DNA of 40,027 bases from Phycisphaeraceae bacterium (GTDB taxonomy: Bacteria; Planctomycetota; Phycisphaerae; Phycisphaerales; Phycisphaeraceae), in NCBI GenBank assembly GCA_020851395.1, contig JADZCW010000013.1, forward strand, positions 1-40,027, read 5' to 3'. Both the position numbers and the translations under genes were made by a program. Under the pieces are notes generated by a model, which saw nothing but the letters and a program-made list of their open reading frames with translations, had not been told where the DNA came from and ran no database searches. Below are positions 7,573-40,027 of this stretch, piece by piece. Each line of letters opens with the position of its first letter. The stretch's first letter is position 1.

Positions 7573-7600
7573 GCAGTCCGCTTGCGGCTGCTTGTTGTCT
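7573..7600 (+). terminator. probable rho-independent terminator of the alkaline phosphatase gene
   Basis: GCAGTCCG / CGGCTGC stem with one bulge, followed by a T-rich tract TTGTTGTCTT. It lies 34 nt after the stop. Confidence 0.45.
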
Positions 7601-8669: not shown

Positions 8670-8686
8670 AAGCGGGACAGATTCCG

Positions 8687-9343
8687 TCAGGCCTTCGCCA
8701 CGGGCCGCGTCTGCCGGGCCGCCTCGTAGCGGTCGCGCAGCTCGTCGGTCTCCGTGACGCACATGTTCATGTCGCGCAGCAGGCCGTCCTCGAGGCTGTA
8801 GATCCAGCCGTGGACGGACACGGGCTGCGAACGCGCCCAGGCCTCCCGAATGATCGGTGTCCGACAGACATTGGACACCTGCTCGATGACGTTGAGCTCG
8901 CAGAGGCGGTCGTGGCGATCTTTCTCGGTGGGCAGGTGGTCGAGCTGGTCGCGGTTCTTGTCGCGGATCTTGGCCACGTGGTCGAGCCACTGGTCGGCCA
9001 GACCCAGCTTATCGCCGCGAAGGGCCGCCCCCACGCCGCCGCAGCCGTAGTGGCCGCAGACGATCACGTGCCGGACCCGCAGCACGTCGACCGCGTACTG
9101 GAGCACCGAGAGGCAGTTGATGTCGCCTTCGACCACGATGTTGGCTACGTTGCGATGCACGAACAGATCGCCCGGCAGGAGCCCGACGATCTGATTCGCG
9201 GGCACGCGGCTGTCGGCACAGCCGATCCATAAGTACTCAGGACGCTGCTGGTTGAGCAGCCGGCGGAAGAACTCCGGGTCGCCCCGGAGCATGCTCTCGG
9301 ACCAGGCCCGGTTATTCGCGAACAGCCGGCTGAGTGTGCGCAT
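8687..9343 (-). CDS. can: beta-class carbonic anhydrase
   Basis: WIGCADSRVP, LFVHRNVAN and VCGHYGCGGV are the Cys/Asp/Arg and His/Cys zinc ligand motifs. MRTLSRLFANNRAW aligns with the E. coli Can N-terminus, favouring ATG 9343 over ATG 9370. Confidence 0.9.
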   Translation of the reverse strand: MRTLSRLFANNRAWSESMLRGDPEFFRRLLNQQRPEYLWIGCADSRVPANQIVGLLPGDLFVHRNVANIVVEGDINCLSVLQYAVDVLRVRHVIVCGHYGCGGVGAALRGDKLGLADQWLDHVAKIRDKNRDQLDHLPTEKDRHDRLCELNVIEQVSNVCRTPIIREAWARSQPVSVHGWIYSLEDGLLRDMNMCVTETDELRDRYEAARQTRPVAKA

Positions 9344-9445
9344 GGGTGTCCTCGCGTGGGCGTTCGCCATCCCGCCGAACCTCGTCGGCCGGGTCCCGGG
9401 GAGGGTGTTTATGGTATGCCTGTGACCGAGGCTCTTCCACGCGAG

Positions 9446-19863: not shown

Positions 19864-19874
19864 ACGGCCAGATG

Positions 19875-21482: not shown

Positions 21483-21487
21483 GGTGA

Positions 21488-22675: not shown

Positions 22676-22714
22676 GCTTCTTCCGCTCTTGCCGGGTCGC
22701 CGGCGATGGACTCG

Positions 22715-24205
22715 CTAGTACGCGCCGCGTCGGTCGAGCAGAATGCCGACCGTGCGGATCAGGATCACCACGTCCAGCCAGACCGACCAGTTCCGCACAT
22801 AATAAGCATCCAGCCGCATGCGTTCACGGTAGGTCAGCTCGTTGCGTCCGCAGGCCTGCCACATCCCCGTGATGCCCGGGACGGCCCGGCAGTAGACGTC
22901 CATCTGGTCGCCGCGCTTGGCCCGCTCGCTCTCGGGGAACGGGCGCGGCCCGACCAGGCTCATCTGACCGAGCATGACGTTGATGAACTGCGGCAGCTCG
23001 TCGAGGCTCAGCCGGCGCAGCCACCGGCCCACCCGCGTCACCCGCGGGTCGGCGCGCAGCTTCCGCGTCACCTCCCACTCCTGACGCAGCTCCCGATTCG
23101 ACGAGAGCGTCTCGTGCAGCACGTCGTTGGCGTTGGCGACCATCGTGCGGAACTTGAACATGTCAAAGGCAACGCCCTGGCGCCCGATCACGCGATGACG
23201 GTAGAGCACCGGCCCGCGCGAGTCGAGCTTGATCAACGCCGCCAGCAGCAGCCCCAGCGGCAGCACCACCACCATCCCCGCCGTCACCAGCAACAGGTCC
23301 ATCAGCCTCTTGATCCGCCGGGGCATCGGCTCGAGCAGGTGCTGACGCACCTCCAGGGCCAGCATCCCCCCCATGTCCCGCGCCTGCACCCAGAGCGTCG
23401 AGAAGTCCAGGAAGTCCGGCACGATCAGCACCCGCCGGAACACCCGGCACTCCTGGTCGATCATCCGCAGAAGCTCCGATCGCGCCGCCTCGGGCATGGC
23501 CAGGATCGCGTAGTGGATCCCCACTGCCCTCGAGACGCGCTGCGCCTGGTCCATCCCACGCACCACCGGCACGCGCCGGATCGCCGACCCGCCCGCGAGT
23601 TCATCGGTCAGCACCACCGCCGGCCGCAGGCCCAACGCCGGCTGCGCCTGCAGCAGCCGGATGACCTGCCGGCAGACGCACCGCCGGCCCATCACCACCA
23701 CCGGGTACCCCCACCACGTCCGCTGGCCGAACATCCAGCGCACGATCCCCCGGCCTGCCGGCACTGTCGCCAGCGCCAGCAGCCACGCCAGCACCATCAT
23801 GCCGCGCGATGACGCGGGGTTGTCCGACAGCAGCAGCACCCCCGCGCCCAGCAGCAGGAAGCCCAGCGTCGTCGCCCGCGTCAGCAGGCGCAGCTCGCGC
23901 GCCGCCACCAGCCCCACGCCCGGGTAGGCCCCCATGCCCCAGTAGACCGTCAGCAGGAACACCAGCCAGGGCCAGCAGGCCAGCAGCTCGCGGCGCTGCG
24001 GCCATCCCTCGGTCCAGGCCGATTCGATCAGCAGCGCCGCGGCCGTCGCCAGCACGATCGCCATCGCGTCGGCCAGGAGCGTCGTGGCCGCGGTCAGGTT
24101 CGGCCAGGACTGCCGGCCCAGCGCCGCCCAGGGCGCGACCGCCCGCGAGACCTCCTCGGGCAGAATCCCGCCGACGCCCTCCCAAGCCATCGCGTTTCTG
24201 CTCAT
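22715..24205 (-). CDS. exopolysaccharide-priming undecaprenyl-phosphate glycosyl-1-phosphate transferase (WbaP/bacterial sugar transferase family)
   Basis: N-terminal multi-TM region. C-terminal KRLMDLLLV...PVLYRHRVIGRQGVAFDMFKFRTM...DPRVTRVGRWLRRLSLDELPQFINVMLGQMSLVGPRP is the PF02397 signature. Confidence 0.9.
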   Translation of the reverse strand: MSRNAMAWEGVGGILPEEVSRAVAPWAALGRQSWPNLTAATTLLADAMAIVLATAAALLIESAWTEGWPQRRELLACWPWLVFLLTVYWGMGAYPGVGLVAARELRLLTRATTLGFLLLGAGVLLLSDNPASSRGMMVLAWLLALATVPAGRGIVRWMFGQRTWWGYPVVVMGRRCVCRQVIRLLQAQPALGLRPAVVLTDELAGGSAIRRVPVVRGMDQAQRVSRAVGIHYAILAMPEAARSELLRMIDQECRVFRRVLIVPDFLDFSTLWVQARDMGGMLALEVRQHLLEPMPRRIKRLMDLLLVTAGMVVVLPLGLLLAALIKLDSRGPVLYRHRVIGRQGVAFDMFKFRTMVANANDVLHETLSSNRELRQEWEVTRKLRADPRVTRVGRWLRRLSLDELPQFINVMLGQMSLVGPRPFPESERAKRGDQMDVYCRAVPGITGMWQACGRNELTYRERMRLDAYYVRNWSVWLDVVILIRTVGILLDRRGAY

Positions 24206-24268
24206 CGTCAGCCTCCCTCGATCAGCGGCGATTCATTGGTTCGTTGCGGATTTCCGGCCCCGCCGTGA

Positions 24269-25867
24269 CTAATAGGTGAATTCCAGCCCCACCGACCCGA
24301 TCACCACGACGGGGCTGTCCCCCGTCCCGTTGGCCAAGCTGAGCCGTTGCAGCGGACTGCCGAGGAACAACACCGACCCCCCGGTCGTCAGGTCCAGCAG
24401 GACCATCTGATCGCCGGGCGTGGACATCGTCAGCAGGGGGATGCTCAGCTCCAGACCGATCTGCCCGTAGCCGAAGAACTGGTCCTGGCCGGCCGGGTCC
24501 TCGAAATAGTCCGACAGGCTCAGCCCGACACGCACCGGCACGGCCAGCGTGATCGGCCGCTTGAAGCTCTCGATCCTCAGCAGCTCGAACTCCGGCCGGA
24601 CACCCAGCTCCAGGTAGATGCCCTGGCCGAACCCGGGGGCATTGGAGTTGGGGTTGCCGCCGTCGGAGTCGCCCTGGTACTCGATCGTCAACAGCGCGTA
24701 GGGCTGGAGGCTGAAGGGAAACGCCGGCGTGCTGTCGTCGAAGGCCAGCTTCGCCTCAAAGGCGTGCACGTCGGCCAACTGCTGGTTCACGCCGATGCGG
24801 TTGGTCTGGTAGACCCCCAAGAGCAGACGCTCGAAGCCGGTGAACTCGACGCCGCCGTCGAAGTCCAGCTCGTAGAACTTCTCGTTGCCCCCGCCGGGCG
24901 TGTTGGCCGTGGGGCCGAAGGTGTGGAACGAGCGGAGCTTGATCACCGCGTCGAGCTTGTTGAAGACGTCGGACATCCGGTCCTCGTACGGACGGACGCG
25001 GATCTCAGCGCCGAGTTGAACGAGCCCCTCGTTCTCCTGGCCGATGCCGCGGTAGAAATAGGCGGTGTCGAATTGGGAGGTGGCATGAAAGAGGAACCGC
25101 CAATGGTCCGCGGGCTCGAGCTCGCTCGGCGGCTCGCCCGGGGTCGGGTAATGGTGAACGCTCGGGACGGCGGAGTGCCGGGGTTCGTCGGCCTCTTGGG
25201 CATCGGCCGGCTGCGTGGCGGCCGGCGCGACGACGGTCTCGGACACGGGCTCCTGGTCGTCCAACGGAGGCGACTGCGGGGCGGTGACGATCGGAGGTTC
25301 GATCGTGATGACCGGGGCGGGGGCGACGGTCTGAGCGGCCTGGGCCAGCGAGGGCGCGGGCTGTCTCCATCGCAGGTTCGCGTAGCTCGCCCCGGGCAGG
25401 GACAGCTCGATCGTCGGCGTCGGCTCAAGGATCAGCAGACGAATCCACCGCCCGCGTGCCGGGCCGGCCTCGAGGCCGTTGAGCGCCAGGCGAGGTCGCT
25501 GGCGGCTGCCGACCATCTCCAGCTCGCCCGGCTGGCCGGCGCCAAGGTCCATCGTCAGCTCTTCGGGCCCGCTGCGCAGGACCAACTGCTTGGCGTCGGT
25601 GTCGAGCTCAAGCCCCAGGCTCTTGTCCAGCACGTCGGATTTGGGGATGACCAGCTTGGGCGTGACGCCGGCCTGCCCGACGAACACCGCCTCGGACGTC
25701 TGCTCGGTCACGTACCAGTCCGGGCCCAGGTCGCGGCCGACCCCGCCGGCGCTCGTCTGCGCCAGGACCGTCAGGCTCAACCCCAGCGCACCGATCAATT
25801 TCAGGACCAGCGGCCGACGCCGTTGTCCCTGGTTCTTCCGCGTCCGTGCTTGGCGATCAGCTCGCAA
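24269..25867 (-). CDS. putative outer-membrane beta-barrel protein of the EPS locus
   Basis: Signal peptide (LVLKLIGALGLSLTVLAQTSA), a Pro/Ala-rich linker, and a C-terminal half of alternating-hydrophobic strands ending in an aromatic terminus (...SVGLEFTY) typical of OMPs. The track start is a TTG, so the exact start is uncertain. No family recognised. Confidence 0.65.
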   Translation of the reverse strand: MRADRQARTRKNQGQRRRPLVLKLIGALGLSLTVLAQTSAGGVGRDLGPDWYVTEQTSEAVFVGQAGVTPKLVIPKSDVLDKSLGLELDTDAKQLVLRSGPEELTMDLGAGQPGELEMVGSRQRPRLALNGLEAGPARGRWIRLLILEPTPTIELSLPGASYANLRWRQPAPSLAQAAQTVAPAPVITIEPPIVTAPQSPPLDDQEPVSETVVAPAATQPADAQEADEPRHSAVPSVHHYPTPGEPPSELEPADHWRFLFHATSQFDTAYFYRGIGQENEGLVQLGAEIRVRPYEDRMSDVFNKLDAVIKLRSFHTFGPTANTPGGGNEKFYELDFDGGVEFTGFERLLLGVYQTNRIGVNQQLADVHAFEAKLAFDDSTPAFPFSLQPYALLTIEYQGDSDGGNPNSNAPGFGQGIYLELGVRPEFELLRIESFKRPITLAVPVRVGLSLSDYFEDPAGQDQFFGYGQIGLELSIPLLTMSTPGDQMVLLDLTTGGSVLFLGSPLQRLSLANGTGDSPVVVIGSVGLEFTY

Positions 25868-26066
25868 GAACCTTGTTCTCCTGGCCCTACATGCGCACGG
25901 CCGGATTTAAACCGCCCACGCCATGAAAGTCAATTAATCTTCCATCGTCAGACATCCGTAAAGATCCCGTGCACCTCCGGGCTCGCGTGGCTTTCTTCAT
26001 TGACGCATCCAACCGTGACTTCTACGCTATGACCAGACAGGCCTCCAGCCCCCGCCGCAGCCGATC

Positions 26067-27083
26067 ATGAGCGGTACTTCACCTAAGATCTCGGTGATCA
26101 TCCTCGCCAACAATGAGGAGCGCAATCTTCGCCGCATGCTCCCCACGCTGGTCGGCCAGAAGACGCCCGAGCCGTTCGAGATTGTGCTCATCGACTCCGG
26201 CTCGACCGACCGGACCAAAGAGGTGGCCCGGGAATTCGGGGCCCACGTGCACTCGATCGCGCCCGAGCGGTTCCAGCACGGCCGGGCGCGGAACCTCGGG
26301 GCCCGGCTGGCCCGCGGCTACTTGCTGGTGTATCTCGTGGCCGACGCCGTGCCGGCGGACGATCGCTGGCTGGCGCGGATGGTCGAGCCCTTGCAGGACC
26401 CGGCCGTCGGCGGCGTCTTCTGCCGGCAACTGCCACCGCCGGGCACCATCCCCCCGCACGCCTACGCCCTCGAGCACCGCTACGGCCCGGAGAACCGCCG
26501 GCACCGGCCGCGACCGGGCGAGCCGTTGACGCTCAGCCGCGTGCGCATCTCCAATGTCGGTTCCGCCTACCGCCGCCAGACGCTGCTCGAACAACCCTTC
26601 CCTGAGAACCTGATCGTCTGCGAGGACGTGGCGATGGGCCTGGCCCTGCTGCGCCGGGGGCACGAGGTGCTCTACCGTGGGGACACGGCCGTCTATCACG
26701 CCCACAATTACACGCCGGCCCAGATCTTCCGCCGCTACTTTGACATCGGCAGCGCCCTGCGCGACCTCTGGTCGCAACTGCCCGAGCCGGCGAAAGACCT
26801 CGGCTCGCGGCCGCTCGAGAGTCCGCTTCGCCAGTTCCTGGCCTACCTCGCCGGGCAGGCCCGCTACCTCGTCCGCCATCGCCAGTGGGGGTGGTTCTTC
26901 GTCATCCCCTACTACGACGCCGCCCGCCTGGCGGGATATGCGGCGGGTCGCGGCCACCGCCGGCTGCCCAACGCCCTTCGCCGGTGTTTCAGCCTGCCGC
27001 GGCACAAGATGTTCTGGGATCAGCCGGCCCCCGCGCCCGCCCAGGCCGAGGACTCCGTTCAGCCGGTCGTGGACGTCGCCTGA
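26067..27083 (+). CDS. glycosyltransferase family 2
   Basis: KISVIILANNEERNLRRMLPTLVGQ...EIVLIDSGSTDRT is the GT2 N-terminal Rossmann and DxD-like region. The ATG start is clear. Confidence 0.85.
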   Translation: MSGTSPKISVIILANNEERNLRRMLPTLVGQKTPEPFEIVLIDSGSTDRTKEVAREFGAHVHSIAPERFQHGRARNLGARLARGYLLVYLVADAVPADDRWLARMVEPLQDPAVGGVFCRQLPPPGTIPPHAYALEHRYGPENRRHRPRPGEPLTLSRVRISNVGSAYRRQTLLEQPFPENLIVCEDVAMGLALLRRGHEVLYRGDTAVYHAHNYTPAQIFRRYFDIGSALRDLWSQLPEPAKDLGSRPLESPLRQFLAYLAGQARYLVRHRQWGWFFVIPYYDAARLAGYAAGRGHRRLPNALRRCFSLPRHKMFWDQPAPAPAQAEDSVQPVVDVA

Positions 27084-28300
27084 ACGTCCGTCGCCGCCGG
27101 CGCGCCCCCCGTCCGCCTGGCCGTCCGGGCCGACCTGAAACACACCACGCCGATCGCCCACATCAGCAGGTACGGGAAGAAAAGCAGGTAGGGCGCGAAA
27201 AACGACAGGTACGTCGCCCCCAGCACCACCGTGTGCGTGAACATCCGGCCGCCGCCGCGTGTCATCCGGGCCGCGCTCCACTGGCCCAACGCCCCATAGA
27301 TCAGGTTGACCCCGATCACCCCCGCCCAGCGGAAGTCCAGCACGGCCGGCCCGAGGTAGTGCGGCGCGTTGTTCAGCGGCTGACGCGCCAGCTCCGCGGC
27401 CCGGCTGACGTTGTAACCCGCCCACGACTCCTGCAGCGCGCCCGGCAGCAGATACGCCAGCGACACGCTGCCGCGATCCGCCGAGCTGCCCTGGTCCATC
27501 CAGTACACGACGTTGTCGAAACTCCCGCTGATATAGCTCATAACCCAGATCAGCCCCGTGCCCGCCGGGCGGACGTGCGGGCTGACCTGCAAGGCGTCCA
27601 TCATGGTCTTGCCGCCCGTGCGGATTTCACCCATCGCCCACATGACCCCCGTCACGCCCACCGCCGCCGTGCCCAGCAGCCAGACCGCGCGCCGCGTGCG
27701 GGCCATCGACGACCGCCGGCCCAGCCGCACGTCGCGCAGGTCGTTGACCCTGCGGGCCTGCACCTCCGTCAGCACCCAGAAGAGCACGGCCATGATCAGC
27801 CAGCCCCGGGTGATGTGCAGCACGAACATCGCCATCGGGATCACCCGCATGGCCCATCGCTGCCAGGCCCGCGGCGCCCGCGCCGAGAGCGCCACCGTCG
27901 CGACGCAGACCGTGGGCCATACCGCGTTGAACGACCCGTACTCGAGATAGGTCGGCGCCGCCAGACCCAGCGTCAGCAGCGGCGGGGGGCCCGCGAGCCA
28001 CCAGTTCCGCACGATGACCAGGCCGGCCACCACCCAGAAGAAGCCCAGACGGCGCCAGTCGAGTGCGCCGGCCGGCGCGTCGTCCGCCATCGGCTTGAAC
28101 GGGCGCGGCGGCAGCCACAGCCCGGCCAGGACCATCCCTGCCAGGTAACTTAGCACCGACAGCCCCAGCACGCCCCAGGCCGTCCGGCCCGGCTCGAAGT
28201 ACTCTAAAATGTGCCAGGAGTACAGACCGATCACGCACAGCCACACCGCCAGAAAGACCGCCAGCGGATGAATCGCCAGACGTACGATCAACTGGGCCAT
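27059..28300 (-). CDS. Wzy-like oligosaccharide repeat-unit polymerase (multi-TM membrane protein)
   Basis: About 10-12 hydrophobic helices with one larger loop (RTGGKTMMDALQ...). Located in the EPS locus. ATG at 28300 (MAQLIVRL). The N-terminal 383 aa of the 797-aa track ORF are an Arg/Gly-rich shadow of the GT2 gene on the other strand. The family call is contextual. Confidence 0.65.
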   Translation of the reverse strand: MAQLIVRLAIHPLAVFLAVWLCVIGLYSWHILEYFEPGRTAWGVLGLSVLSYLAGMVLAGLWLPPRPFKPMADDAPAGALDWRRLGFFWVVAGLVIVRNWWLAGPPPLLTLGLAAPTYLEYGSFNAVWPTVCVATVALSARAPRAWQRWAMRVIPMAMFVLHITRGWLIMAVLFWVLTEVQARRVNDLRDVRLGRRSSMARTRRAVWLLGTAAVGVTGVMWAMGEIRTGGKTMMDALQVSPHVRPAGTGLIWVMSYISGSFDNVVYWMDQGSSADRGSVSLAYLLPGALQESWAGYNVSRAAELARQPLNNAPHYLGPAVLDFRWAGVIGVNLIYGALGQWSAARMTRGGGRMFTHTVVLGATYLSFFAPYLLFFPYLLMWAIGVVCFRSARTARRTGGAPAATDVQATSTTG

Positions 28301-28303
28301 GTC

Positions 28304-29353
28304 GTGGACCCTCGCCAGACCGAGCACCCGTCCCACCGGGCGCTCGGCCCCGATGGTAGCGTCGCACCCCCTGCCCACCAAGCGCCCGGCGGGCGCGTCC
28401 AGATCCTGCTGGCGACCTACAACGCCGCGGCCTGGCTCGAGCCCCTGCTCGACTCGCTCCTGGCCCAGACGCACCCGAACATCGAGATCCTCGCCCGCGA
28501 CAACGCCTCGATCGACGACACCTTCTCTCGCCTCGAGCACGCCGCCGCCCGCCACTCGAGCCGCGTGAGGCTCCTCCGCCACCGCGAGCCCAATCTCGGC
28601 GCCCTGGGCAATTTCGCCCGGCTCCTGGATCAGGCCGACGCCCCCTACGTCATGTTCGCCGACGCCGACGACGTCTGGCGGCCCGACAAGGTGGCCGTCA
28701 CGCTCACCGCGATGCGCGAGCTCGAGGCGCAGGTCGGCCCCGGCACGCCGCTGCTGGTGCACACGGACCTGACCGTGGTCGACGCCCAACTGCACGAGAT
28801 CCACCCCTCGGCCTGGCGGGCGGCCAACCTCGACCCTCGGCTCAGCCGCGATCCCCGCCGGCTCCTGACGCAGAACTGCGCCTGGGGCTGCACCATGATG
28901 CTCAACCGCACGCTGGTCGAGCTCGCCCGGCCCGTCCCGACGGACGTGGTGATGCACGACTGGTGGGTCATCCTCGTCGCCGCCGCGATGGGTCGGGTTG
29001 CCTACCTGCCGCGGCCGACGATCCTGCACCGCCAGCACGGGGGCAACGACACGGGCGTCAAGTCCTGGGCGCTGGGCTACGTGCTCGAACAGGCCCGCCG
29101 CATCACCGACCGAGGCCAGTTCGACCGGCGCATGGCCCCGACCATCGCCCAGGCGGACGAACTGCTCCGCCGGTTCGCGGATCGACTGCCCCCCCAAGTT
29201 GCCGCCGCGTCGACCGCTTACGCGAAGTTGGCTTGTGTTTCGCCGCCGCGCCGCTGGGCCCGGGTGGTCCGCCACGGCCTGTGGCAGCGGGGGCTGGTTC
29301 GCAACCTTGGTTGGCTCTGGGCCGTCGCACGGATGCCGCGGAAGCGATCCTGA
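28304..29353 (+). CDS. glycosyltransferase family 2 (rhamnosyltransferase-like)
   Basis: VQILLATYNAAAWLEPLLDSLLAQTHPNIEILARDNASID and MFADADDVWRPDKV (DxD). The start is uncertain: GTG at 28304, or ATG at 28268, which would overlap the divergent wzy-like start. Confidence 0.8.
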   Translation: MDPRQTEHPSHRALGPDGSVAPPAHQAPGGRVQILLATYNAAAWLEPLLDSLLAQTHPNIEILARDNASIDDTFSRLEHAAARHSSRVRLLRHREPNLGALGNFARLLDQADAPYVMFADADDVWRPDKVAVTLTAMRELEAQVGPGTPLLVHTDLTVVDAQLHEIHPSAWRAANLDPRLSRDPRRLLTQNCAWGCTMMLNRTLVELARPVPTDVVMHDWWVILVAAAMGRVAYLPRPTILHRQHGGNDTGVKSWALGYVLEQARRITDRGQFDRRMAPTIAQADELLRRFADRLPPQVAAASTAYAKLACVSPPRRWARVVRHGLWQRGLVRNLGWLWAVARMPRKRS

Positions 29354-29379
29354 GGCTTGAACCGTTAGAGCCGTGGGCG

Positions 29380-29415
29380 AAAAAAAGTGGACGCTCTGTT
29401 CGCCAGAGCGTCCAC
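29380..29415 (-). terminator. strong rho-independent terminator (minus strand)
   Basis: Perfect 12-bp stem GTGGACGCTCTG (29387-29398) / CAGAGCGTCCAC (29404-29415) with loop TTCGC. It is flanked by A7 (29380-29386), which reads as U7 after the hairpin on the minus strand. Confidence 0.7.
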
Positions 29416-29739
29416 AAAGATCACCGGGGCGTCGGGAGGAGCCGTGACGCAATGGTCGGCGTCACGACAGCGGACTTGGCCGGCGCCGCCGGGCTATGGG
29501 CTGCTCCACCCATGGATTCACAACAATCTCAAGGCGGAGCAGCTCGCCGATGGAGCGTCCCTGCCGCGTCTCTCCTTTCCCTCACGGCCTGGCCGCCCGC
29601 TCGTCCGTGCCGGGGGCCATCTCTCCCCACCTTCCCCTTAAAGGCCCTGATTCCATGCAAGGTTCTGGATCAGGGCCGCTGCGTGGATCTCACATGCTGG
29701 CCTGCTAGACCGACCTTGCGCATGCTCGGGTCATGACAT

Positions 29740-31047
29740 TCACCGCCGCCGCCACAAGGCCAGGCCGCCGAGGGCCAGCAGGCTGAGGCTGGCGGGCTCA
29801 GGGATGACGGCCAGCTGGGCGGCGTCGACGCCGTTGCCGGCCAGCAGGGCGACGAAGGTGTTGATGTCCTGGACGTTGATGACGCCGGACTGGTTGGGGT
29901 CGACCTCGCCGTAGACGGCGTCGACCTCGCTGGTGCCGAGGCTCAGGGTGGCAAGACGGACCGCGAGGTAGGCCTTGTAGGCGGCCTCGGAGCCCAGGGC
30001 GGTGACGAAGGGGTTGATGTCCTGGACGTTGACCAGGCCGTCAAGGTTCATGTCGCCGGGGGTGAAGGGGTCGCGGGCGTTGGCGACGGTGACACGGAAG
30101 TCGATGTTGTCGATGCCCACGGCCATGCGGTCGGAGGGCTTGGAGCCGTAGAGCCAGAAGTAGATGTGGGGCTCGGAGTAGGTCGCCATCCAGACCGAGA
30201 CGTAGTAGTAGTCGTAGGTCGTCTCGATGTTGAAGGAAGTGTCGGTGGGGTTGGTGACCGAGAGGGTGTGCCATTGCATGCCGAGTGAGCCGATGTCCGG
30301 CTTGTCATCGCCGATGCCGGCCCAGCCCCAGGTGTTCCAGTTGGGGCTGTTCCAGACCGTGCGGGCGGTCAGGTCCGGGCCGAGCTCAGGGTAGGTGCCG
30401 TCGGCCCCGCCGAAGATCGGGCCGGCCCGGTCCTGCCAGGTGGGTAGCTCCTCGGCGTTGAGGCCGCCGATCCAGACGTGGAAGATGCTGTCGGCGTCCA
30501 GGACGACGTCCTCCCACTGGTTGAACCAGTAGTCGAAGTTGATCGTGGCCGGTCCGGCGACGTGATTGGCCGGGGCCTGCATGATCTGCGTCGCGTGGGG
30601 ACGGAAGAAGACCCCCTCAAGGAAGTGGTTGCTGGGATTGGTCGGGTCCTGTGAGACGTTGATGCCGTTGACCTTGTCGGTCCATGAGCCGACATACAGG
30701 CTCCTAGGATCGGGCTTGGTGGTGATGCCGACCTGGTTGTCGTAATCGCCCGAGGCGCCCGCGCCCCAGTTGGTGATCCAGCGGCCGACGTCGAACTGAG
30801 GATGGAACTGCCACGCCCGGACCGGATTGGCGCCGGCCGACACCTCATCGGCGGTCCGTGGGGAGTGCTGCTCCTTGATGTAGGGGTAGTCCTGAACGGT
30901 TGGCCCGCCGCCGGCGCCGGGGTCGAAGGTGATTTTCGTCAAATCTTCGAAGTCGCCGCCACTGACGATGTTGTCCGAGAGGGCACCAAACGTGGGAGCG
31001 GCCAGGACAGCCGCCGCGACAAGGGTAAATACGATTGGCCGGCGCAT
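29740..31047 (-). CDS. secreted CBM-like / dockerin-like repeat / PEP-CTERM protein, paralog 1
   Basis: Signal peptide. NIVSGGDFE start is typical of CBM4/9-like jelly-roll modules. Two EF-hand-like dockerin loops (DMNLDGLVNVQD, DPNQSGVINVQD). C-terminal IPEPASLSLLALGGLALWRRR. GGAG lies 8 nt upstream of the ATG. Confidence 0.85.
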   Translation of the reverse strand: MRRPIVFTLVAAAVLAAPTFGALSDNIVSGGDFEDLTKITFDPGAGGGPTVQDYPYIKEQHSPRTADEVSAGANPVRAWQFHPQFDVGRWITNWGAGASGDYDNQVGITTKPDPRSLYVGSWTDKVNGINVSQDPTNPSNHFLEGVFFRPHATQIMQAPANHVAGPATINFDYWFNQWEDVVLDADSIFHVWIGGLNAEELPTWQDRAGPIFGGADGTYPELGPDLTARTVWNSPNWNTWGWAGIGDDKPDIGSLGMQWHTLSVTNPTDTSFNIETTYDYYYVSVWMATYSEPHIYFWLYGSKPSDRMAVGIDNIDFRVTVANARDPFTPGDMNLDGLVNVQDINPFVTALGSEAAYKAYLAVRLATLSLGTSEVDAVYGEVDPNQSGVINVQDINTFVALLAGNGVDAAQLAVIPEPASLSLLALGGLALWRRR

Positions 31048-31122
31048 GTGATCTTCTCCGTGGTTTTCCTGGGTGCGAATAGGGTCAGAACAAAAGGTTG
31101 TCCATGAATCACAGTTAGGGTT

Positions 31123-32430
31123 TCAGGCGACCGCCCGACGGGACCTCGAGTGCAAAAACAGACCACCGAGCGTCAGCAGGCTGAGGCTGGCGGGCTCGGG
31201 GATGACGGCCAGTTGATCCGCGTCAACGCCGTTGCCGGCGAGCATGGTGACGAAGGTGTTAATGTCCTGGACGTTGATGACCCCGTCCTGGTTGGGGTCG
31301 ATCTCAATGATGACGGCATCGAGTTCGGGGGGGCTGGTGCCCAGGCCCTTGGCGATGAGGTAGTTGGCAATCAACGCTCTATAGCTGGCGATGCTGCCCA
31401 GGGCGGTGACGAAGGGGTTGATGTCCTGGACATTGACCACGCCGTCAAGGTTCATGTCACCGGGGAGGAAGGGGTCGCGGACGTTGCCGACGGTGACACG
31501 GAAGTCGATGTTGTCGATGCCGATAGCCAGGCGATCCGTCGGCTTCCCGCCGTACAGCCAGAAGTAGGGGTGCCCCTCGCTGTAGGTCGTCATCCAGACC
31601 GAGATGTAGTAGTAGTCGTAGGTCGTGTCGAGGTTGAACGTCGTGGTCTCGGGGTACATCCCCGACAGCGAATGCCACTGCATGCCCTGCGAGCCGATGC
31701 TGGGCTTGTCATCGCCGATGCCCGCCCAGCCCCAGGTGTTCCAGTTGGGGCTGTCCCAGATCGGGTTGTACCCGGCGGGGGGGGCCCCGCCCCAGACCGG
31801 GCCGGCGCGGTCCTGCCAGTCCGGGAGGTCGGCCGCGTTCACGCCGCCGATCCAGACATGGAAGATGCTGTCAGCGTCGGTGATCACGTCCTCCCACTGG
31901 TTGAACCAGTAGTCGAAGTTGATCGTCGCCGGGCCCGCGACCTGGTTGGCCGGGGCCTGCATGATCTGCGCCGCATGGGGACGGAACAGGACGCCCTCGA
32001 GGAAATGGTTGCTGGCGTTGGTCGGGTCCTGCGAGACGTTGATGCCGTTGACCCTCTCCGTCCACCCGCCGTTGACGTAGAGGCTTCTGGGATCAGGCTT
32101 GGCAGTGATGCCAAGCTGGTTGTCATAATCGCCCGAGGGGCCCGCGCCCCAGTTGGTGATCCATCGGCCGACGTCGAACTGAGGATGGAACTGCCACGCC
32201 CGGACCGGATTGGTCCCGGCCGAGACCTCATCGGCGGTCCGCGGGGAGTGCTGTTCCTTGACGTACGGATAATCCATCACGACCGAGCCTCCACCGGGCC
32301 CGGGGTAGAACGCGACCTTGGTCAGTTGCTCGAAGTCGCCGCCGCTGACCAGATTGTCCGACAGGGCGCCGAACGCGGGCGCAGCCAAGAGGGCCGTCGT
32401 CGCAGCAAGCATCGCAGCGAATCCACGCAT
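31123..32430 (-). CDS. secreted CBM-like / dockerin-like repeat / PEP-CTERM protein, paralog 2
   Basis: Same architecture as paralog 1, and by eye roughly four-fifths identical to it (e.g. KEQHSPRTADEVSAG.NPVRAWQFHPQFDVGRWITNWGAG). DMNLDGVVNVQD and DPNQDGVINVQD loops. IPEPASLSLLTLGGLFL PEP-CTERM. Confidence 0.85.
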   Translation of the reverse strand: MRGFAAMLAATTALLAAPAFGALSDNLVSGGDFEQLTKVAFYPGPGGGSVVMDYPYVKEQHSPRTADEVSAGTNPVRAWQFHPQFDVGRWITNWGAGPSGDYDNQLGITAKPDPRSLYVNGGWTERVNGINVSQDPTNASNHFLEGVLFRPHAAQIMQAPANQVAGPATINFDYWFNQWEDVITDADSIFHVWIGGVNAADLPDWQDRAGPVWGGAPPAGYNPIWDSPNWNTWGWAGIGDDKPSIGSQGMQWHSLSGMYPETTTFNLDTTYDYYYISVWMTTYSEGHPYFWLYGGKPTDRLAIGIDNIDFRVTVGNVRDPFLPGDMNLDGVVNVQDINPFVTALGSIASYRALIANYLIAKGLGTSPPELDAVIIEIDPNQDGVINVQDINTFVTMLAGNGVDADQLAVIPEPASLSLLTLGGLFLHSRSRRAVA

Positions 32431-32504
32431 CCTGTCTCTCCTTCGGACTGTCTGTCACCGCGGCAGTTCGACTCGATCGGGTAGTCGTGACGGATCGCGA
32501 AGGT

Positions 32505-33854
32505 TCAGGCGGACGGCCTCGAGGACCTGGCCAGCCGTGTAAGGCCCGCCAGGACCAGGAGCGAGAGGCTCGCGGGCTCGGGGATGACGGCCAGTTGGGC
32601 GGCGTCCACGCCGCTGCCGGCCAGCAGGGCGACGAACGGGTTGATGTCCTGCACGTTGATGACGCCGGACTGGTTGGGATCTACCTCGTCAAAGACCTGG
32701 TCGACCAGGCTCGGGTCGAGGCCTAGTGTGGCCAGGCGGGTGGCGAGGTAGGCCTTGTACGCGGCCTCGCTGCCCAGGACCTGGACGAAGGGGTTGATGT
32801 CCTGCACGTTGACGACGTCGTCGAGGTTCATGTCGCCCGGCAGGAAGGGGATGCGCGCCATCTCGAGGCTGACATTGTCGACTGCAACCGAGAACTCATC
32901 CGCCGGCCGGCCGCCGTACAGCCAGAAGTAGGGGTGCGGCTCGCTGTAGACGCAGAGCCAGAACTCGACGTAGTAGTAGGCGTAGGTCTGGCCGAGGTTG
33001 AACGAGCCGTCGGTGTAGAGATACTCGGCCGGATCGCTGCCCATCACGGTCGAGGTCACGCCGTCCGAAAGCGTGCGCCACTGCGGGGTGAAGGGCGAGC
33101 CGTAGGCGATCTGGACGAAGCCGTTGTCGGCCAGGTTGCCGCCCCAGTTGGACCAGTGCGGGGAGCTGTAGAGCAGGTCCCAGCCGGTGAGGTTCGGTGT
33201 GGTGCCGATGTCATGGCTGCCGGGCCCCCATCGCTGCTGCCAGGTGGGTAGGCCGGCCTCGGGCAGGCCGTAGACGTAGGCGTGCAGAATGACCGGGGCG
33301 TCAGGGTCGGGGTTCCAGTACTTGATGTAGTAGTCGAAGTCGATCTGCGCCGTGCCGGTCGTCTGCCGGTTGGGGGCCTCGACGAACTGCCCCATCCAGC
33401 TCCGGAACGTCACCCCCTCCATGACATGGTTGCCGGCGTTGAAGGGGTCGACGGAGATGTTCTGGTTGTTGACGCTGTCGACCCAGGCGTTGTTCTGGTA
33501 GAGGCTGCGCGGGTCAGGTTGGGTGGTGATGCCGATCTGGTTGTCGTAGTCCCCGCTGGGCCCGACGCCCCAGACAGTCATCCACCGGCCCAGGTCGAAT
33601 TGAGGATGGAACTGCCAGGCGCGTACCGGATTCGCGCCGGCGCTGATCTCTTCCGCCGTGCGAGGCGAATGCTGCTGCTTGTAGTGGGCGTAGTCCTGAA
33701 CCGTGCCGCCGCCTCCCGCGCCGGGGTCAAAGGTGATCTTGGTCAGCTGCTCAAAATCTCCCCCACCGATGATGTTGCCCGTCGTCCCGCCCAGAGCCGT
33801 AGCAGTCCAAGCCAGTCCGACAACCATGCCCAGCAAGGCAGACCGATGTAGCAT
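32505..33854 (-). CDS. secreted CBM-like / dockerin-like repeat / PEP-CTERM protein, paralog 3 (more divergent)
   Basis: Same N-terminal conserved block (QQHSPRTAEEISAGANPVRAWQFHPQFDLGRWMT). DMNLDDVVNVQD and DPNQSGVINVQD loops. IPEPASLSLLVLAGLTRL PEP-CTERM. AAGGAG lies 7 nt upstream of the ATG. Confidence 0.85.
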   Translation of the reverse strand: MLHRSALLGMVVGLAWTATALGGTTGNIIGGGDFEQLTKITFDPGAGGGGTVQDYAHYKQQHSPRTAEEISAGANPVRAWQFHPQFDLGRWMTVWGVGPSGDYDNQIGITTQPDPRSLYQNNAWVDSVNNQNISVDPFNAGNHVMEGVTFRSWMGQFVEAPNRQTTGTAQIDFDYYIKYWNPDPDAPVILHAYVYGLPEAGLPTWQQRWGPGSHDIGTTPNLTGWDLLYSSPHWSNWGGNLADNGFVQIAYGSPFTPQWRTLSDGVTSTVMGSDPAEYLYTDGSFNLGQTYAYYYVEFWLCVYSEPHPYFWLYGGRPADEFSVAVDNVSLEMARIPFLPGDMNLDDVVNVQDINPFVQVLGSEAAYKAYLATRLATLGLDPSLVDQVFDEVDPNQSGVINVQDINPFVALLAGSGVDAAQLAVIPEPASLSLLVLAGLTRLARSSRPSA

Positions 33855-36624: not shown

Positions 36625-37719
36625 TCAAACGCCGCCGGCTTGGGCGGGAGGCAGCAGGGATCGCTCGATCAGACTCCAGAGCTCATCCAGACCGTCGAGC
36701 CAGCGCAGGCCCACCACCGCGCGGCGGACGGACAGCCCCTGCCAGGCGCCGGGGTCGATGTCCCGGAGCTTGACCCAGTCCTTCTCCGACGTCACGACCA
36801 CTTCGGCGCCGTTCTGCCGGGCCCAGGCCGCGATCTCCCGGACGTCGGCCTCGGTGTAGGCGTGGTGATCGGGGAAGCTCGTGCAGGCGAGCACGTCGAC
36901 GGCGACCTGGCGCAGGGACCGCTCGAAGGCCCCGGGGTTGGCCAGACCGCAGACGCCGACCACGGGCTCGTTCTTCACCGCGTCGAGCGGGATCGATCGG
37001 CCGTCGGCGTCGAGGTACTCGCGCCAGCCGTGGGCGGCGTGGGCGATCGGCGGCCGGCCGGCGCGCCGCTCGATCTGTCGATCCAGTTCGACCAGGGCGG
37101 CGGCGTCGACCTGATCGGCGCGAGTGACGATCACCGCGTCGGCCCGTCGCAGGGATGAAACGGGTTCACGCAACAGCCCGCGAGGCAGAAGATGGCCGTA
37201 TCCCCAGGGGTTTGAGGCGTCGATCAGAACCACGTTCAGATCGCGGTGCACCCGGCGGTGCTGGAAGCCGTCGTCGAGCAGGAAGACGTCGACGTCCGTG
37301 GTGTTCAGGACCTGTCGCGCAGCCTGTGAGCGATCGGCGTTCGCGGCCACTGGCACGCCTGGGCCCAGGGCCTCGGCCAGCATCATGGCCTCGTCGCTGC
37401 GATGGTTCGCGTCGGCCTTGTAACCGCGCAGGAGCACCGCCGGGCGCCGCCCGCGCTCCCGCAACCGGCGGGCGAGGTCGATGACCATCGGCGTCTTGCC
37501 CGTGCCGCCAGTGGTGAGGTTGCCCACACTGATCGTCGGCCGACCCAGCCGGTGGACGCTGCGCAGGCCGTGGTCGAACATCGCGTTGCGGACGACCACC
37601 GCCGCGGCATAGCCCGGCACGAGCGCATTCAGCCCCACGCGCAGCAGGCCGGCCTGGGGGCCACGCGCCTCGCCGGACATCACCGCGACGATCCCGCCGG
37701 GGCTGGATCGCGAAGACAC
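36625..37719 (-). CDS. lpxK: tetraacyldisaccharide 4'-kinase
   Basis: ISVGNLTTGGTGKTPMVIDLARRL (P-loop), LLRGY, FLLDDGFQH and DHH are the LpxK pattern over the full length. Confidence 0.9.
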   Translation of the reverse strand: MSSRSSPGGIVAVMSGEARGPQAGLLRVGLNALVPGYAAAVVVRNAMFDHGLRSVHRLGRPTISVGNLTTGGTGKTPMVIDLARRLRERGRRPAVLLRGYKADANHRSDEAMMLAEALGPGVPVAANADRSQAARQVLNTTDVDVFLLDDGFQHRRVHRDLNVVLIDASNPWGYGHLLPRGLLREPVSSLRRADAVIVTRADQVDAAALVELDRQIERRAGRPPIAHAAHGWREYLDADGRSIPLDAVKNEPVVGVCGLANPGAFERSLRQVAVDVLACTSFPDHHAYTEADVREIAAWARQNGAEVVVTSEKDWVKLRDIDPGAWQGLSVRRAVVGLRWLDGLDELWSLIERSLLPPAQAGGV

Positions 37720-37758
37720 GTCATTTGCAGGGGGAAATGGGGCAGTCAGACGTCGGCC

Positions 37759-38448
37759 TCACGTGGGATCAGCGGGCGATCCATCGCCCCATTCTCGCAG
37801 AATGGGCAGGATCCTGCGCATCGGCAGGCCCACGACCGTGCCCGGATCGCCCTGGACCTTGACCGGCCAGCGGCCCTCGAGCTCGGCCAGGTTGTACCCG
37901 CCGGCCTTGCCCCGCCATCGACCCTGCTCGAGGAACGCGTCGAGCTCCGTGGGCGAGACGGGACCAAGAGTCACGCGGGCGACATCGGCCAGGCTCAGGC
38001 GGCGCGTTTCCACGCCATCGCGCAGGGCGATGAGCATCACACCCGTGACGACCTGGTGCTCACGCCCGAGCAGGCTCTTGAGCATCGTTCGCGCCTCATC
38101 GATGCCCTGGGGCTGACCGAGCAGCAACCCGTCGGGGTTGACGACGATGGTGTCGGCCGCGATCAGGACGACCAGAAGGGTACGGGGTACAGGGTACGGG
38201 GTAGGGGGGAGTGGGTTCTCCTTACCCCGTACCCTGTACCCCGTACCCTTCAGACAACTCTCAGCTTTCTGTCCCGCCAGTTCTATCGCGTGGGCGATGG
38301 CGTCGCCCGCCTCGCTCGCCGGGCTGGGCGGGTCGGCGAAGGGCGGGTCGATCTGTGTGAAGGGGACGCCCGCCTCGGCCAGCAGGGAGGCCCGGCGGGG
38401 TGAACGACTGGCCAGCAGGACATGGGGCCATTGTGGCATGGGGGGCAT
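37759..38448 (-). CDS. maf: Maf-family nucleoside triphosphate pyrophosphatase carrying an in-frame 25-codon palindromic insertion
   Basis: VLLASRSPRRASLL, AADTIV, GREHQVVTGV, GKAGGY and GLP motifs. The probable start is ATG at 38448 or 38439; the track start at 38502 adds an atypical 18-aa extension. See the repeat at 38176-38250. Confidence 0.85.
   Translation of the reverse strand: MPPMPQWPHVLLASRSPRRASLLAEAGVPFTQIDPPFADPPSPASEAGDAIAHAIELAGQKAESCLKGTGYRVRGKENPLPPTPYPVPRTLLVVLIAADTIVVNPDGLLLGQPQGIDEARTMLKSLLGREHQVVTGVMLIALRDGVETRRLSLADVARVTLGPVSPTELDAFLEQGRWRGKAGGYNLAELEGRWPVKVQGDPGTVVGLPMRRILPILREWGDGSPADPT
38176..38250. repeat. 75-bp perfect palindromic element built of RGGGTAC heptads (28-nt arms, 19-nt spacer) inside maf
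   Basis: Arm 38176-38203 AAGGGTACGGGGTACAGGGTACGGGGTA is the exact reverse complement of arm 38223-38250 TACCCCGTACCCTGTACCCCGTACCCTT. Each arm is four tandem 7-mers. CAG flanks both ends. Confidence 0.9.
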
Positions 38449-38673
38449 TGTAGGGCGGGGGATGTCGACGTGGAAAATGGCGTTATCAGTGCTGATATTC
38501 AAGGTTTGAATTCATAAGTCCCGATAAATGAGGCATGACGGACTTAGCGGCCAGAGCCGCTGCGCCCGCCCCTCGCCGCTTACGGACAAACGGCGAGTCA
38601 GGACTCCAACGACTCGGTAGGCAAGGCTCACTCGACGCCGGCAGGTCCGACTCAGGGACGAAAGGACGAGCCC

Positions 38674-40023
38674 GTGCGAACCATCGCGATCATCAACCAG
38701 AAGGGCGGCTGCGGGAAAACCACCGTGGCCATCAACCTCGCGGCCGTGCTCGCCGGTCAGGGCCGCAAGACCTTGCTGGTGGACATGGACCCGCAGGGCC
38801 ACTGCGCGCTGGGACTGGCCGTGCCCGAGGCGCAGATCGACCGCTCGATCTCTGACGTGCTCCGCTGCGGCCTCGACGGCTCACTCGCCTTCGCCGACGT
38901 CACCTGGCAGATCTCCCGCCACCTGGACCTGGCCCCGGCCACCATGGCCCTGGCCGGCATCGAGCAGGAGCTGGCCAACGCCACCGACCGCGACCGCCGG
39001 CTCATCCAGGTGCTCTCGACCGTCGCCGACCAATATGAGTTCTGCATCATCGACTGCCCGCCGTCGATCGGCCTTTTGACCTTCAACGCACTGCGCGCGG
39101 CCCACGAGGTGATCATCCCCGTCGAGACGGGCTACTTCGCGCTGCAGGGTTCGATCAAGCAGGAGGCGACGATCGAGATGCTCGCCCGCCGGGTCAACCA
39201 CCAGGCGCGGTTCAAGGTGCTCGCCACGATGTACGACGTGCGGACCAAGCTCGCACGCGAGATCCTCTCCGAGCTCAAGCGACACTTCGGCGACAAGCTC
39301 CTGCCCGTGGTGGTGCACTTCAACAGCAAGCTCAAGGAGGCGGCGAGCTTCGGCCAGGCGATCACCGAGTACGACCCCGGCAGCCGGGGCATGCAGGACT
39401 TCGAACGCTTGACTGAGTGGCTGATGGCCAACCCCTGCGAGGCGCCCGAGGCGCCCGAGCCGGCGACGGTCGGCAGCCCGGCGCTCAGCCGCGCAGCCGA
39501 GCTGGTCGAGCGTGCCCGGGCCCTGTCGCGCCGCACCGCCGCGCTGGCCGCCAAGCTCCAGGCCGACGCCGACATCCAGGCCGAGCCGAGCGTTCGCGCC
39601 CCGCAGCCGCCGACGGCCGTGGCCGAGCCCACCCCGGCCGGCGACAACGGCGATGGCTCGGTCCTCGCCCCCGTGGCCCAGGAGATCCCCGCCACGCCGC
39701 CGCTGTCCCTGTCCGAAAAACTCGCCAAGGTCTACGGCGTGCGCGCCACGACGCAGGGCCTGCTCTTCGTGCAGCCGGTCGACGGCAAGACGCGAGCCGT
39801 CGCGGTGGCCGGCGACTTCAACGCCTGGTCGCAGACAGCCACCCCGCTGGTCCGGGATGAGCAACTGGGCGTCTGGCAGGTCTGCGTGCCGGTGCCGCCG
39901 GGCCGTTACCGCTACCGATTGATCGTCGACGGCCAGTGGGTCCACGACCCCTACAACCACTACGTCGAGTCGAACCCCTTCGGCGAGCTCGACAGCGTGG
40001 TCGAGGCCGTCGCGACGGCGTGA
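38674..40023 (+). CDS. ParA/Soj-family deviant Walker-A ATPase fused to a C-terminal CBM48 / AMPK-beta glycogen-binding-like domain
   Basis: N-terminus VRTIAIINQKGGCGKTTVAINLAA, LLVDMDPQG, IIDCPPS. A central Ala/Pro-rich linker. C-terminus AVAVAGDFNAWSQTATPLVRDEQLGVWQVCVPVPPGRYRYRLIVDGQWVHDPYN fits the GxFNxW...pGxYxYkfiVDGxW..DP pattern. The GTG start is preceded by AAAGGA. Confidence 0.9.
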   Translation: MRTIAIINQKGGCGKTTVAINLAAVLAGQGRKTLLVDMDPQGHCALGLAVPEAQIDRSISDVLRCGLDGSLAFADVTWQISRHLDLAPATMALAGIEQELANATDRDRRLIQVLSTVADQYEFCIIDCPPSIGLLTFNALRAAHEVIIPVETGYFALQGSIKQEATIEMLARRVNHQARFKVLATMYDVRTKLAREILSELKRHFGDKLLPVVVHFNSKLKEAASFGQAITEYDPGSRGMQDFERLTEWLMANPCEAPEAPEPATVGSPALSRAAELVERARALSRRTAALAAKLQADADIQAEPSVRAPQPPTAVAEPTPAGDNGDGSVLAPVAQEIPATPPLSLSEKLAKVYGVRATTQGLLFVQPVDGKTRAVAVAGDFNAWSQTATPLVRDEQLGVWQVCVPVPPGRYRYRLIVDGQWVHDPYNHYVESNPFGELDSVVEAVATA

Positions 40024-40027
40024 TTCA

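Follow-up and report, generated by a model that had tools for sequence, protein, structure and literature searches.

A Soj-like ParA ATPase fused to a CBM48 module in Planctomycetota and other phyla, and a tentative role in placing glycogen on the nucleoid

The stretch of DNA considered here, 40,027 nucleotides (nt) from a Phycisphaeraceae bacterium (contig JADZCW010000013.1) and called the window throughout, ends with a gene, at 38674–40023 on the plus strand, that encodes a ParA-family ATPase fused to a carbohydrate-binding module (CBM) of family CBM48. Judged by its sequence, the product, ParA-CBM, is a member of a conserved, multi-phylum and uncharacterised Soj-like subfamily without linkage to parB. 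We propose, with a probability of roughly 45%, that it belongs to an orphan ParA system in which the ATPase would bind cytoplasmic alpha-glucan directly and tether or distribute it on the nucleoid, while a partner protein would drive ATP turnover. An earlier reading made from the bare letters (the sequence-only reading) had described the same fusion and had taken the fused module as a direct grip on cargo that stands in for a separate adaptor. The facts given in that reading are all confirmed. The genuine fusion, a Soj that is not linked to parB and the retained sugar-contact residues have all held up. The replacement of an adaptor by the CBM has not, because a conserved partner of 570–640 amino acids (aa) is encoded in all the Phycisphaerae relatives examined.

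First of all, the gene is intact and its N-terminal part is a ParA ATPase. The open reading frame (ORF) is complete, with 449 aa plus stop, according to the ORF list, Pfam, the AlphaFold2 model and the homologues. It starts with GTG, 7 nt after a Shine-Dalgarno-like AAGGA (38662–38666, plus strand, read directly from the sequence), and this start is supported by the N-terminus MRTIAIINQKGG, which agrees with the homologue starts in the alignment. The third-position GC of 0.92 is that of genuine genes in this window of 67.6% GC. Pfam AAA_31 matches aa 1–177 (E 2.5e-46) and CbiA matches with E 1e-20; P-loop models of the AAA_31, CbiA and BcsQ type together cover aa 1–250. A search of PDB sequences with aa 1–259 finds ParA 8ray at E 6e-51 and Thermus Soj 1wcv at E 1e-45. 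An AlphaFold2 model of the protein, built from a 28-sequence alignment, has a mean predicted local distance difference test score (pLDDT) of 86.8, with values above 90 for aa 1–255, and in Foldseek it gives template modelling (TM) scores of 0.89–0.92, with E 1e-23 to 5e-28, against Soj/ParA structures. The PDB sequence search and Foldseek thus place a Soj/ParA fold at aa 1–255 (38674–39438, plus strand). Within it lies the deviant Walker A motif KGGCGKTT already pointed out in the sequence-only reading (aa 10–17; 38701–38724, plus strand, read directly), with the signature Lys10 and the catalytic Lys15; residues K10, G11, G12, G14, K15, T16 and T17 are invariant in both family alignments (A2 and A3). 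Walker A′ (LLVDMDPQ, with D37 and D39) and Walker B (CIIDCPPS, with D127) are also invariant in the alignments. With these three motifs intact on a Soj fold, the ATPase looks active. Furthermore, MYDVRTKLAR (aa 186–195; 39229–39258, plus strand) is invariant and lies in a block of invariant columns, M186–L198 in A2, that reads MYDVRTKLAREIL. When aligned to 8ray and 1wcv, its Arg190, invariant in the family, falls on the arginine of their D-x-R-T motif, which we take to be the counterpart of B. subtilis Soj R189, an arginine for non-specific DNA binding; Arg190 is thus a putative DNA-binding residue.

Second, ParA-CBM stands apart from the parB-linked ParAs. The adjacency of parB was scored in 88 fetched loci, as a ParB-like ORF within 600 nt of parA that passes a strict motif test. 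Such an ORF accompanies none of the approximately 27 CBM-ParA loci, in contrast to at least 33 of the approximately 60 plain ParAs in the same scan. In a tree of the ATPase domains, which is indicative only, being a midpoint-rooted neighbour-joining tree with sampling skewed by the scan pattern, the CBM-ParAs form three groups that lie off the canonical clade; all plain ParAs form one clade, except those of loci L013, L015 and the contig-truncated L011. The near-universal PRNVRLSEAPS motif of canonical ParAs is replaced in the family by an invariant HFNSKLKEAAS. The protein stays below the cut-off of every curated NCBIfam model; for the ParA_partition equivalog it scores 108.8 bits where 180 are required. 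In the window, the upstream neighbours are Maf and LpxK; parB is not among them, as the sequence-only reading had it, and the 40,027 nt hold no parS-like site at up to three mismatches. Among the 5000 best-scoring PLSDB plasmid records, none has a match covering at least 80% of ParA-CBM. The missing parB linkage, the off-clade position, the low NCBIfam score, the motif swap and the PLSDB result together lead us to regard ParA-CBM as an orphan ParA and not as part of a ParABS system.

It follows from the same evidence that a chromosomal or plasmid Soj/ParA with a decorative tail, served by a ParB–parS pair encoded elsewhere, is a very improbable explanation. The ATPase domain is indeed closest to chromosomal Soj/ParA structures, homologues are labelled 'chromosome partitioning protein' and the putative DNA-binding arginine is conserved. 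On the other hand, the adjacency count, the tree, the NCBIfam cut-off and the lack of parS in the window make a canonical chromosomal Soj unlikely, and the motif swap and the PLSDB result add to this. Moreover, parA–parB pairs are seen in other species of Myxococcota and Gammaproteobacteria (L052, L077, L030 and L048), two groups that normally possess their own parAB. A plasmid partition gene is rejected on the result for the best-scoring 5000 PLSDB records together with the chromosomal character of the window, which carries the housekeeping genes purA, uppS, folP and lpxK. An anti-phage defence system is rejected on the negative PADLOC search, in which the ATPase drew only P-loop matches below threshold and the partners drew no match at all.

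Third, the C-terminal part of the protein is, by profile and residue pattern, a true AMPK-beta-type CBM48, carried on a long linker. The linker (aa 256–351) is Ala/Pro-rich and partly helical, in agreement with the earlier description. It includes a conserved helix, NPALSRAAELVERARALSxRTAAL, with Leu and Ala at a spacing of 3–4 (aa 268–302; 39475–39579, plus strand, from A2 and the AlphaFold2 model), in which R273–L284, R287 and T288 are invariant in A2; the model draws it at aa 270–302 with pLDDT 67–84. A local hidden Markov model (HMM) of this helix matches only Phycisphaerae loci and L007, so that the helix is specific to the Planctomycetota clade with long linkers. A variable, disordered Ala/Pro-rich segment follows (aa 303–345; 39580–39708, plus strand, from the model and the alignment), with pLDDT below 50 at aa 305–342 and a length that differs greatly across homologues. 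The module itself occupies aa 352–446 (39727–40011, plus strand), as placed by Pfam, phmmer against the PDB, the AlphaFold2 model and conservation. On aa 372–444, AMPK1_CBM (PF16561) scores 45.7 bits against a gathering cut-off of 26.8 (E 7.8e-12) and CBM_48 (PF02922) 33.0 bits against 22.4, so that these two and AAA_31 are all over their gathering cut-offs. The C-terminal 107 aa match the solved CBMs of AMPK beta-1 and beta-2 (phmmer against the PDB, E 1.6e-9 to 1e-8) and the SEX4 glucan phosphatase (E 1.7e-7). The model shows aa 355–445 as an all-beta segment with pLDDT above 90; in the Foldseek search of the full model, the best 50 matches listed are all to the ATPase domain.

The sugar site of this module is well kept. 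An alignment of approximately 400 family CBMs to AMPK beta-1 and beta-2 served to compare them at the glycogen-contact residues of AMPK beta-1, which we take to be W100, K126, W133, L146 and N150, a numbering that is consistent with the PDB-match alignments. With G147 included, the equivalents in the window protein are W385, R415, W422, F436, G437 and D440. Across the family, Trp stands at the W100 position in 397 of 402 CBMs and at the W133 position in 382 of 402; Arg or Lys stands at the K126 position in 388 of 402 and Gly at the G147 position in 392 of 402; the N150 position holds Asn in 327 and Asp in 26 of the 402, and the L146 position is hydrophobic in every one. This is the pattern expected of selection on a canonical alpha-glucan site, although it is short of proof of binding, and because the canonical AMPK-beta contact residues are kept, direct binding of alpha-glucan by the CBM may reasonably be inferred. 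The same counts bear on another explanation, in which the CBM48-like beta-sandwich would be a protein–protein docking module, for the partner or for the ATPase domain, that binds no glycan here. The CBM of AMPK beta is known to contact the kinase domain as well, the partner is co-conserved and no glycogen genes lie near. However, conservation sits exactly on the sugar platform (the W100, K126, W133, G147 and N150 equivalents), as expected if glycan binding has been retained, and members that lack the CBM still have the partner, which must therefore be independent of the CBM. We thus consider docking quite unlikely. The library of representatives also contains a protein of 1812 aa (P0149) that has no ATPase domain but 17–18 tandem repeats of the AMPK1_CBM/CBM48 type; it came up solely because each of these repeats resembles the CBM of ParA-CBM.

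Fourth, the fusion is widespread. Approximately 400 proteins with the ParA plus CBM48 architecture were collected from at least five phyla. More than 120 full-length homologues, 62–75% identical and labelled 'AAA family ATPase' or 'chromosome partitioning protein' of Phycisphaeraceae/Planctomycetota, all carry PF16561, and in an exhaustive HMMER search of representatives at 50% identity more than 150 clusters keep the two-domain layout, down to approximately 39% identity; the fusion is thus genuine and conserved. A search seeded from Myxococcota added at least 120 further members. In the taxonomic scan, which took one genome per species, the groups with the fusion among the matches listed are Phycisphaerae, Sedimentisphaerales, Planctomycetia/Planctomycetales, Candidatus Omnitrophota (L012, L014, L018, L019 and L029), Myxococcota (L016 and L021), Gammaproteobacteria (L022 and L086, Thiogranum) and, in Acidobacteriota, a Vicinamibacterales acidobacterium (L024). 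Members outside Planctomycetota have a short linker and a length of approximately 350–420 aa. A fusion created by a frameshift or by an assembly join of a parA and a CBM48 gene, a danger that the sequence-only reading had itself raised, has practically no probability left: the same architecture recurs in hundreds of independent assemblies (NCBI, JGI, ENA and Logan), which rules the artefact out, and within the window protein the frame is continuous, third-position GC is 0.92 and AlphaFold2 is confident for both domains. In two loci, L013 (Isosphaeraceae) and L015 (Nitrospirae), the ParA is accompanied by the partners but lacks a CBM. The CBM thus seems to be an add-on to an older ParA–partner system, and the idea that it forms the sole link to cargo does not survive.

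Finally, in the relatives examined, the gene that follows ParA-CBM is not parB. Past the stop codon, the window has only 4 nt left (40024–40027, read directly), as had been stated before, and the downstream gene was therefore sought in relatives. In every Phycisphaerae relative with downstream sequence, an ORF of 570–640 aa begins 13–165 nt after ParA-CBM on the same strand, and a partner gene is thus expected directly beyond the end of the window. The sequence-only reading had allowed for a parB at this place; in the relatives examined, the place is held by the partner. Loci with this type of partner are L001, L002, L004, L005, L006, L009 and L010, and also L013 of Isosphaeraceae. Pfam (with E up to 10), NCBIfam, PADLOC and a PDB profile search assign no family to the partners, the only match being to CpaE/Ssd, far below threshold (17.9 bits against a cut-off of 154.45), for one of the shorter p1 proteins described below. 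Thirty-six partner homologues are detectable, and those that are named are 'hypothetical protein' entries of Phycisphaeraceae/Planctomycetota. The AlphaFold2 model of one partner, P0394, has a mean pLDDT of 75 and shows a helix (aa 3–18), approximately 100 disordered residues, an alpha/beta domain (aa 118–330, pLDDT above 90), approximately 110 more disordered residues and a second folded domain (aa 450–589, pLDDT above 90). In Foldseek, the alpha/beta domain matches FlhG, FleN, HypB and MinD (best E 5e-6, probability 1.0). All the Foldseek matches listed are to this MinD-like domain and none is to the C-terminal one. At the position of Walker A, the alpha/beta domain has an invariant GNLPGxxGPW, and it is this replacement, together with the MinD/FlhG fold match, that marks it as a pseudo-ATPase of the MinD/ParA fold.

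In Myxococcota and Gammaproteobacteria, ParA-CBM is followed by two unannotated genes, p1 (approximately 230–285 aa) and p2 (approximately 170–220 aa); loci with the two as separate genes are L016, L021, L022, L086, L087, L088 and L015. With profiles of 6–8 sequences, hhalign relates p1 to the pseudo-ATPase domain of the partner (probability 91.7, E 8e-7) and p2 to its C-terminal domain (probability 87.4, E 4e-6); with profiles of 2–3 sequences the links are not significant, and the deeper profiles are required. On these links, the Phycisphaerae partner is a fusion of genes that are separate elsewhere, and a three-part module has been kept across phyla. The partners also share a short N-terminal motif, borne in P0394 by the helix of aa 3–18, which reads RTxQxLDxLADLFLTG in Phycisphaerae, ARELGDVLHYFL in Myxococcota, KKRLGKSLDDISHFFLS in p1 of L015 and KPLGRGLEDISHLFLTQ in p2 of L024. 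These N-termini resemble, and the likeness is one of resemblance only, the GLG(R/K)GLxAL(I/L/F) peptide of ParB as found in ParBs from the same scan. The N-terminal peptide of ParB is a ParA-activating element, and the N-terminal peptide of the partner is, by this likeness, a putative stimulator of ParA.

The surroundings of the ParA-CBM gene differ in other ways among the groups. A small gene for a protein with a MerR-type helix-turn-helix (HTH) lies directly 5′ of the ParA or ParA-CBM gene in L015 (5415–5900), L022 (5380–5910), L086 (5146–5601) and L088 (9438–9950). It occurs in Nitrospirae, Gammaproteobacteria and one Myxococcota locus and is absent from the Phycisphaerae loci; its product has weak similarity to HspR, CarH and RacA-type proteins and may either regulate the ParA-CBM system or bind DNA as one of its components. 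The Omnitrophota loci L012, L014, L019 and L029, in which the p1 and p2 partners were not detected, have a different conserved mini-operon around the gene, with an unannotated ORF of approximately 190 aa upstream; downstream, each of the four loci has an ORF of approximately 105 aa. The next downstream ORF in L012 and L019 (140–170 aa) has weak matches to EF-Tu domain 2; L029 has an ORF of 122 aa at that position and none was seen in L014. Two genes past the partner, on the same strand, DnaJ and ClpB are encoded in the Phycisphaerae loci L001 (14818–18554), L002 (4955–6102) and L006 (14124–17584), an arrangement that is likely plain synteny of close relatives.

Taken together, these features suggest how such a system could work. 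An ATP-bound ParA dimer would sit on the nucleoid through non-specific DNA binding by Arg190 and the adjacent invariant basic residues. Each dimer would present two CBM48 modules on long flexible linkers, and this pair may grip cytoplasmic particles of alpha-1,4/1,6-glucan, that is glycogen, in a multivalent manner. The N-terminal peptide of the partner would then trigger ATP hydrolysis, upon which ParA would leave the DNA. The outcome would be glycogen granules that are tethered, spaced and inherited on the nucleoid in an ATP-dependent manner; equivalently, a ParA/partner positioning system would have been recruited to glycogen.

Several points weigh against this proposal. First of all, genomic context offers no independent link to glycogen: no glgA, glgB, glgC, glgP or glgX gene was found beside ParA-CBM when the window and the examined loci of Phycisphaerae, Myxococcota, Omnitrophota, Gammaproteobacteria and Planctomycetia were checked. 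The Myxococcota loci have a gene of the phosphoglucomutase/phosphomannomutase (PGM/PMM) family approximately 5 kb away on the opposite strand, with a length that would be typical of GlmM. Second, L013 and L015 retain their partners yet have no CBM, so that the core function of the system would be independent of glycan binding. Third, the classical diffusion-ratchet places the partner, and not the ATPase, on the cargo, and a ParA fixed to its own cargo is at odds with it. Finally, both the residue numbering in AMPK and the DNA-binding role of Arg190 are carried over from established work on AMPK and Soj.

In the main rival, the partner proteins (the pseudo-MinD with its C-terminal domain and, in some loci, the MerR-type HTH protein) would define the cargo or process, and the CBM48 would be a glycogen sensor and not a hook for cargo. 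Glycogen would then modulate or sequester the ATPase and so couple an unrelated positioning process to the state of carbon storage, as the CBM of AMPK beta couples kinase regulation to glycogen. The same partners in the CBM-less L013 and L015, the conservation of the partner module across phyla, the MerR-type HTH gene directly upstream in L015, L022, L086 and L088 and the lack of a glycogen gene in any neighbourhood examined all speak for it. However, a CBM with intact sugar-site residues is kept in nearly all members despite deep divergence, the linker, being long and flexible, resembles a tether made for reach, and nothing points to another cargo, since the partners were assigned to no family in PADLOC, NCBIfam, Pfam or PDB sequences. 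We therefore hold the sensor to be unlikely, and direct tethering of alpha-glucan by ParA-CBM remains our preferred, if tentative, reading.

The proposal is of interest since ParA/MinD ATPases are general-purpose positioning motors of bacteria and glycogen is a very widespread bacterial carbon store. Plasmids, chromosomes, carboxysomes, chemoreceptor arrays and division sites are among their known classes of cargo, each of which opened a field. We know of no described system that controls the position or inheritance of bacterial glycogen granules, and our literature searches found none; full-text searches likewise found no description of a ParA–CBM48 fusion or of a link between ParA and glycogen, and a search on parA/parB of Phycisphaera found nothing useful. 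With a built-in glycan-binding module and conserved contact residues in at least five phyla, positioning of glycogen granules can now be tested directly. In its strongest form, which we consider possible but doubtful, ParA-CBM48 and its pseudo-MinD partner would be a dedicated and ancient multi-phylum machine that spaces and partitions glycogen granules via the nucleoid; this would be the first active system for segregating a storage polysaccharide and the first ParA whose hold on its cargo does not rest on an adaptor alone but comes from a ligand-binding domain covalently joined to the ATPase. Furthermore, a ParA paired with a MinD/ParA-like pseudo-ATPase that lacks Walker A provides a natural case of such a regulatory arrangement, and to our knowledge no example has been described. 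For annotation, the names 'chromosome partitioning protein' and 'AAA family ATPase' are probably wrong in hundreds of database entries.

The remainder of the window is chiefly of descriptive interest. Upstream of ParA-CBM and divergent from it lies Maf (37759–38502, minus strand), with LpxK beyond it (36625–37719, minus strand); in the Phycisphaerae loci, the divergent neighbours are Maf, LpxK and an HldE-like gene. Maf and LpxK are two adjacent genes in the window (36625–38502), in L004 and in L006, unlike in the closest relative, L001 (GCA_013328875.1), where they are called as a single fused product of 584 aa (7948–9702). The divergent intergenic region between maf and ParA-CBM, 171 nt long, contains an imperfect hairpin (38572–38597) with arms of 10 nt, 90% complementary, and a 6-nt loop, approximately 80 nt 5′ of the start codon. 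The window also includes an exopolysaccharide/PEP-CTERM cluster. Its exopolysaccharide-type part (18616–29353) comprises a PGA_cap-like gene (18616–19893, minus strand), a Wza/Poly_export gene with SLBB (21488–22675, minus strand), a Bac_transf priming transferase (22715–24205, minus strand), two glycosyltransferases of family GT2 (26067–27083 and 28211–29353, both plus strand) and two large ORFs with no family match (19875–21482 and 24269–25867). An ORF of 797 aa on the minus strand (27059–29452), also with no family match, overlaps the second GT2 ORF on the opposite strand and is probably a high-GC shadow ORF. Next to the cluster, at 29740–33854 on the minus strand, stand three tandem paralogous ORFs of 434–448 aa, 77% and 54% identical to one another, which have no Pfam domain except a C-terminal PEP-CTERM sorting signal and which carry repeated dockerin-like DxNxDGVVNVQDIN motifs. 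The gene cluster and the PEP-CTERM proteins together suggest a locus of the exopolysaccharide/exosortase type. A stretch of approximately 1.1 kb (7540–8686), flanked by an alkaline phosphatase (5851–7539) and a beta-carbonic anhydrase (8687–9370, minus strand), holds no ORF with coding-like third-position GC.

We finally compare ParA-CBM with systems that are already known. The closest in structure are the chromosomal Soj/ParA proteins of type Ib (Thermus Soj 1wcv/2bek, ParA 8ray and H. pylori Soj 6iub), which are alike in fold (TM approximately 0.9) and approximately 40% identical over 250 aa, and which share the signature-lysine Walker A, the catalytic Asp residues, Walker B and the D-x-R-T arginine. 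ParA-CBM, on the other hand, adds a C-terminal extension of 195 aa with the CBM48, has a partner that is not ParB, lacks an adjacent parB or parS, lies off the clade and has HFNSKLKEAAS in place of PRNVRLSEAPS. In terms of function, PhaM offers a possible analogy and no evidence: in Ralstonia eutropha, it bridges granules of the storage polymer polyhydroxybutyrate (PHB) to the nucleoid, and the granules are thereby distributed to the daughter cells. PhaM is, however, not an ATPase and has no sequence kinship to ParA-CBM.

In its genetic organisation, ParA-CBM is like McdA/McdB of carboxysomes, PomZ/PomX/PomY and ParC/PpfA of chemoreceptor arrays, which are likewise ParAs without linkage to parB that have an adjacent partner; McdA is also among the Foldseek matches of the ParA-CBM model. 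Here as there, the partner is lineage-specific, fast-evolving and partly disordered, and its N-terminal peptide could plausibly activate the ATPase. In contrast to these systems, the ATPase of ParA-CBM itself bears a ligand-binding module, the CBM48, and its partner, unlike McdB, PomX/PomY or ParP, holds a MinD/FlhG-like domain that lacks Walker A. The C-terminal domain, for its part, has its best sequence matches (E 1e-9 to 1e-7) within a class formed by AMPK-beta, the plant PTST proteins, SEX4/LSF and yeast Atg45. AMPK-beta is a non-enzymatic CBM48 adaptor to polyglucan, of a kind known in eukaryotes; PTST1 (PMC6322578) is reportedly a precedent for such an adaptor, and Atg45 of yeast is said, in the title of its paper (PMC11145338), to be an autophagy receptor for glycogen. 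The ParA-CBM family conserves the Trp–Trp platform, the basic residue and the Asn of these adaptors, with Arg in place of K126 of the AMPK-beta CBM and Phe, Val or Tyr in place of L146. It also has the layout of the PTST type, with the CBM48 at the C-terminus, after a coiled-coil or linker. What sets it apart is that the module is joined to a P-loop positioning ATPase, where the others have a kinase scaffold, a phosphatase or an autophagy receptor, and that the protein is bacterial and cytoplasmic.

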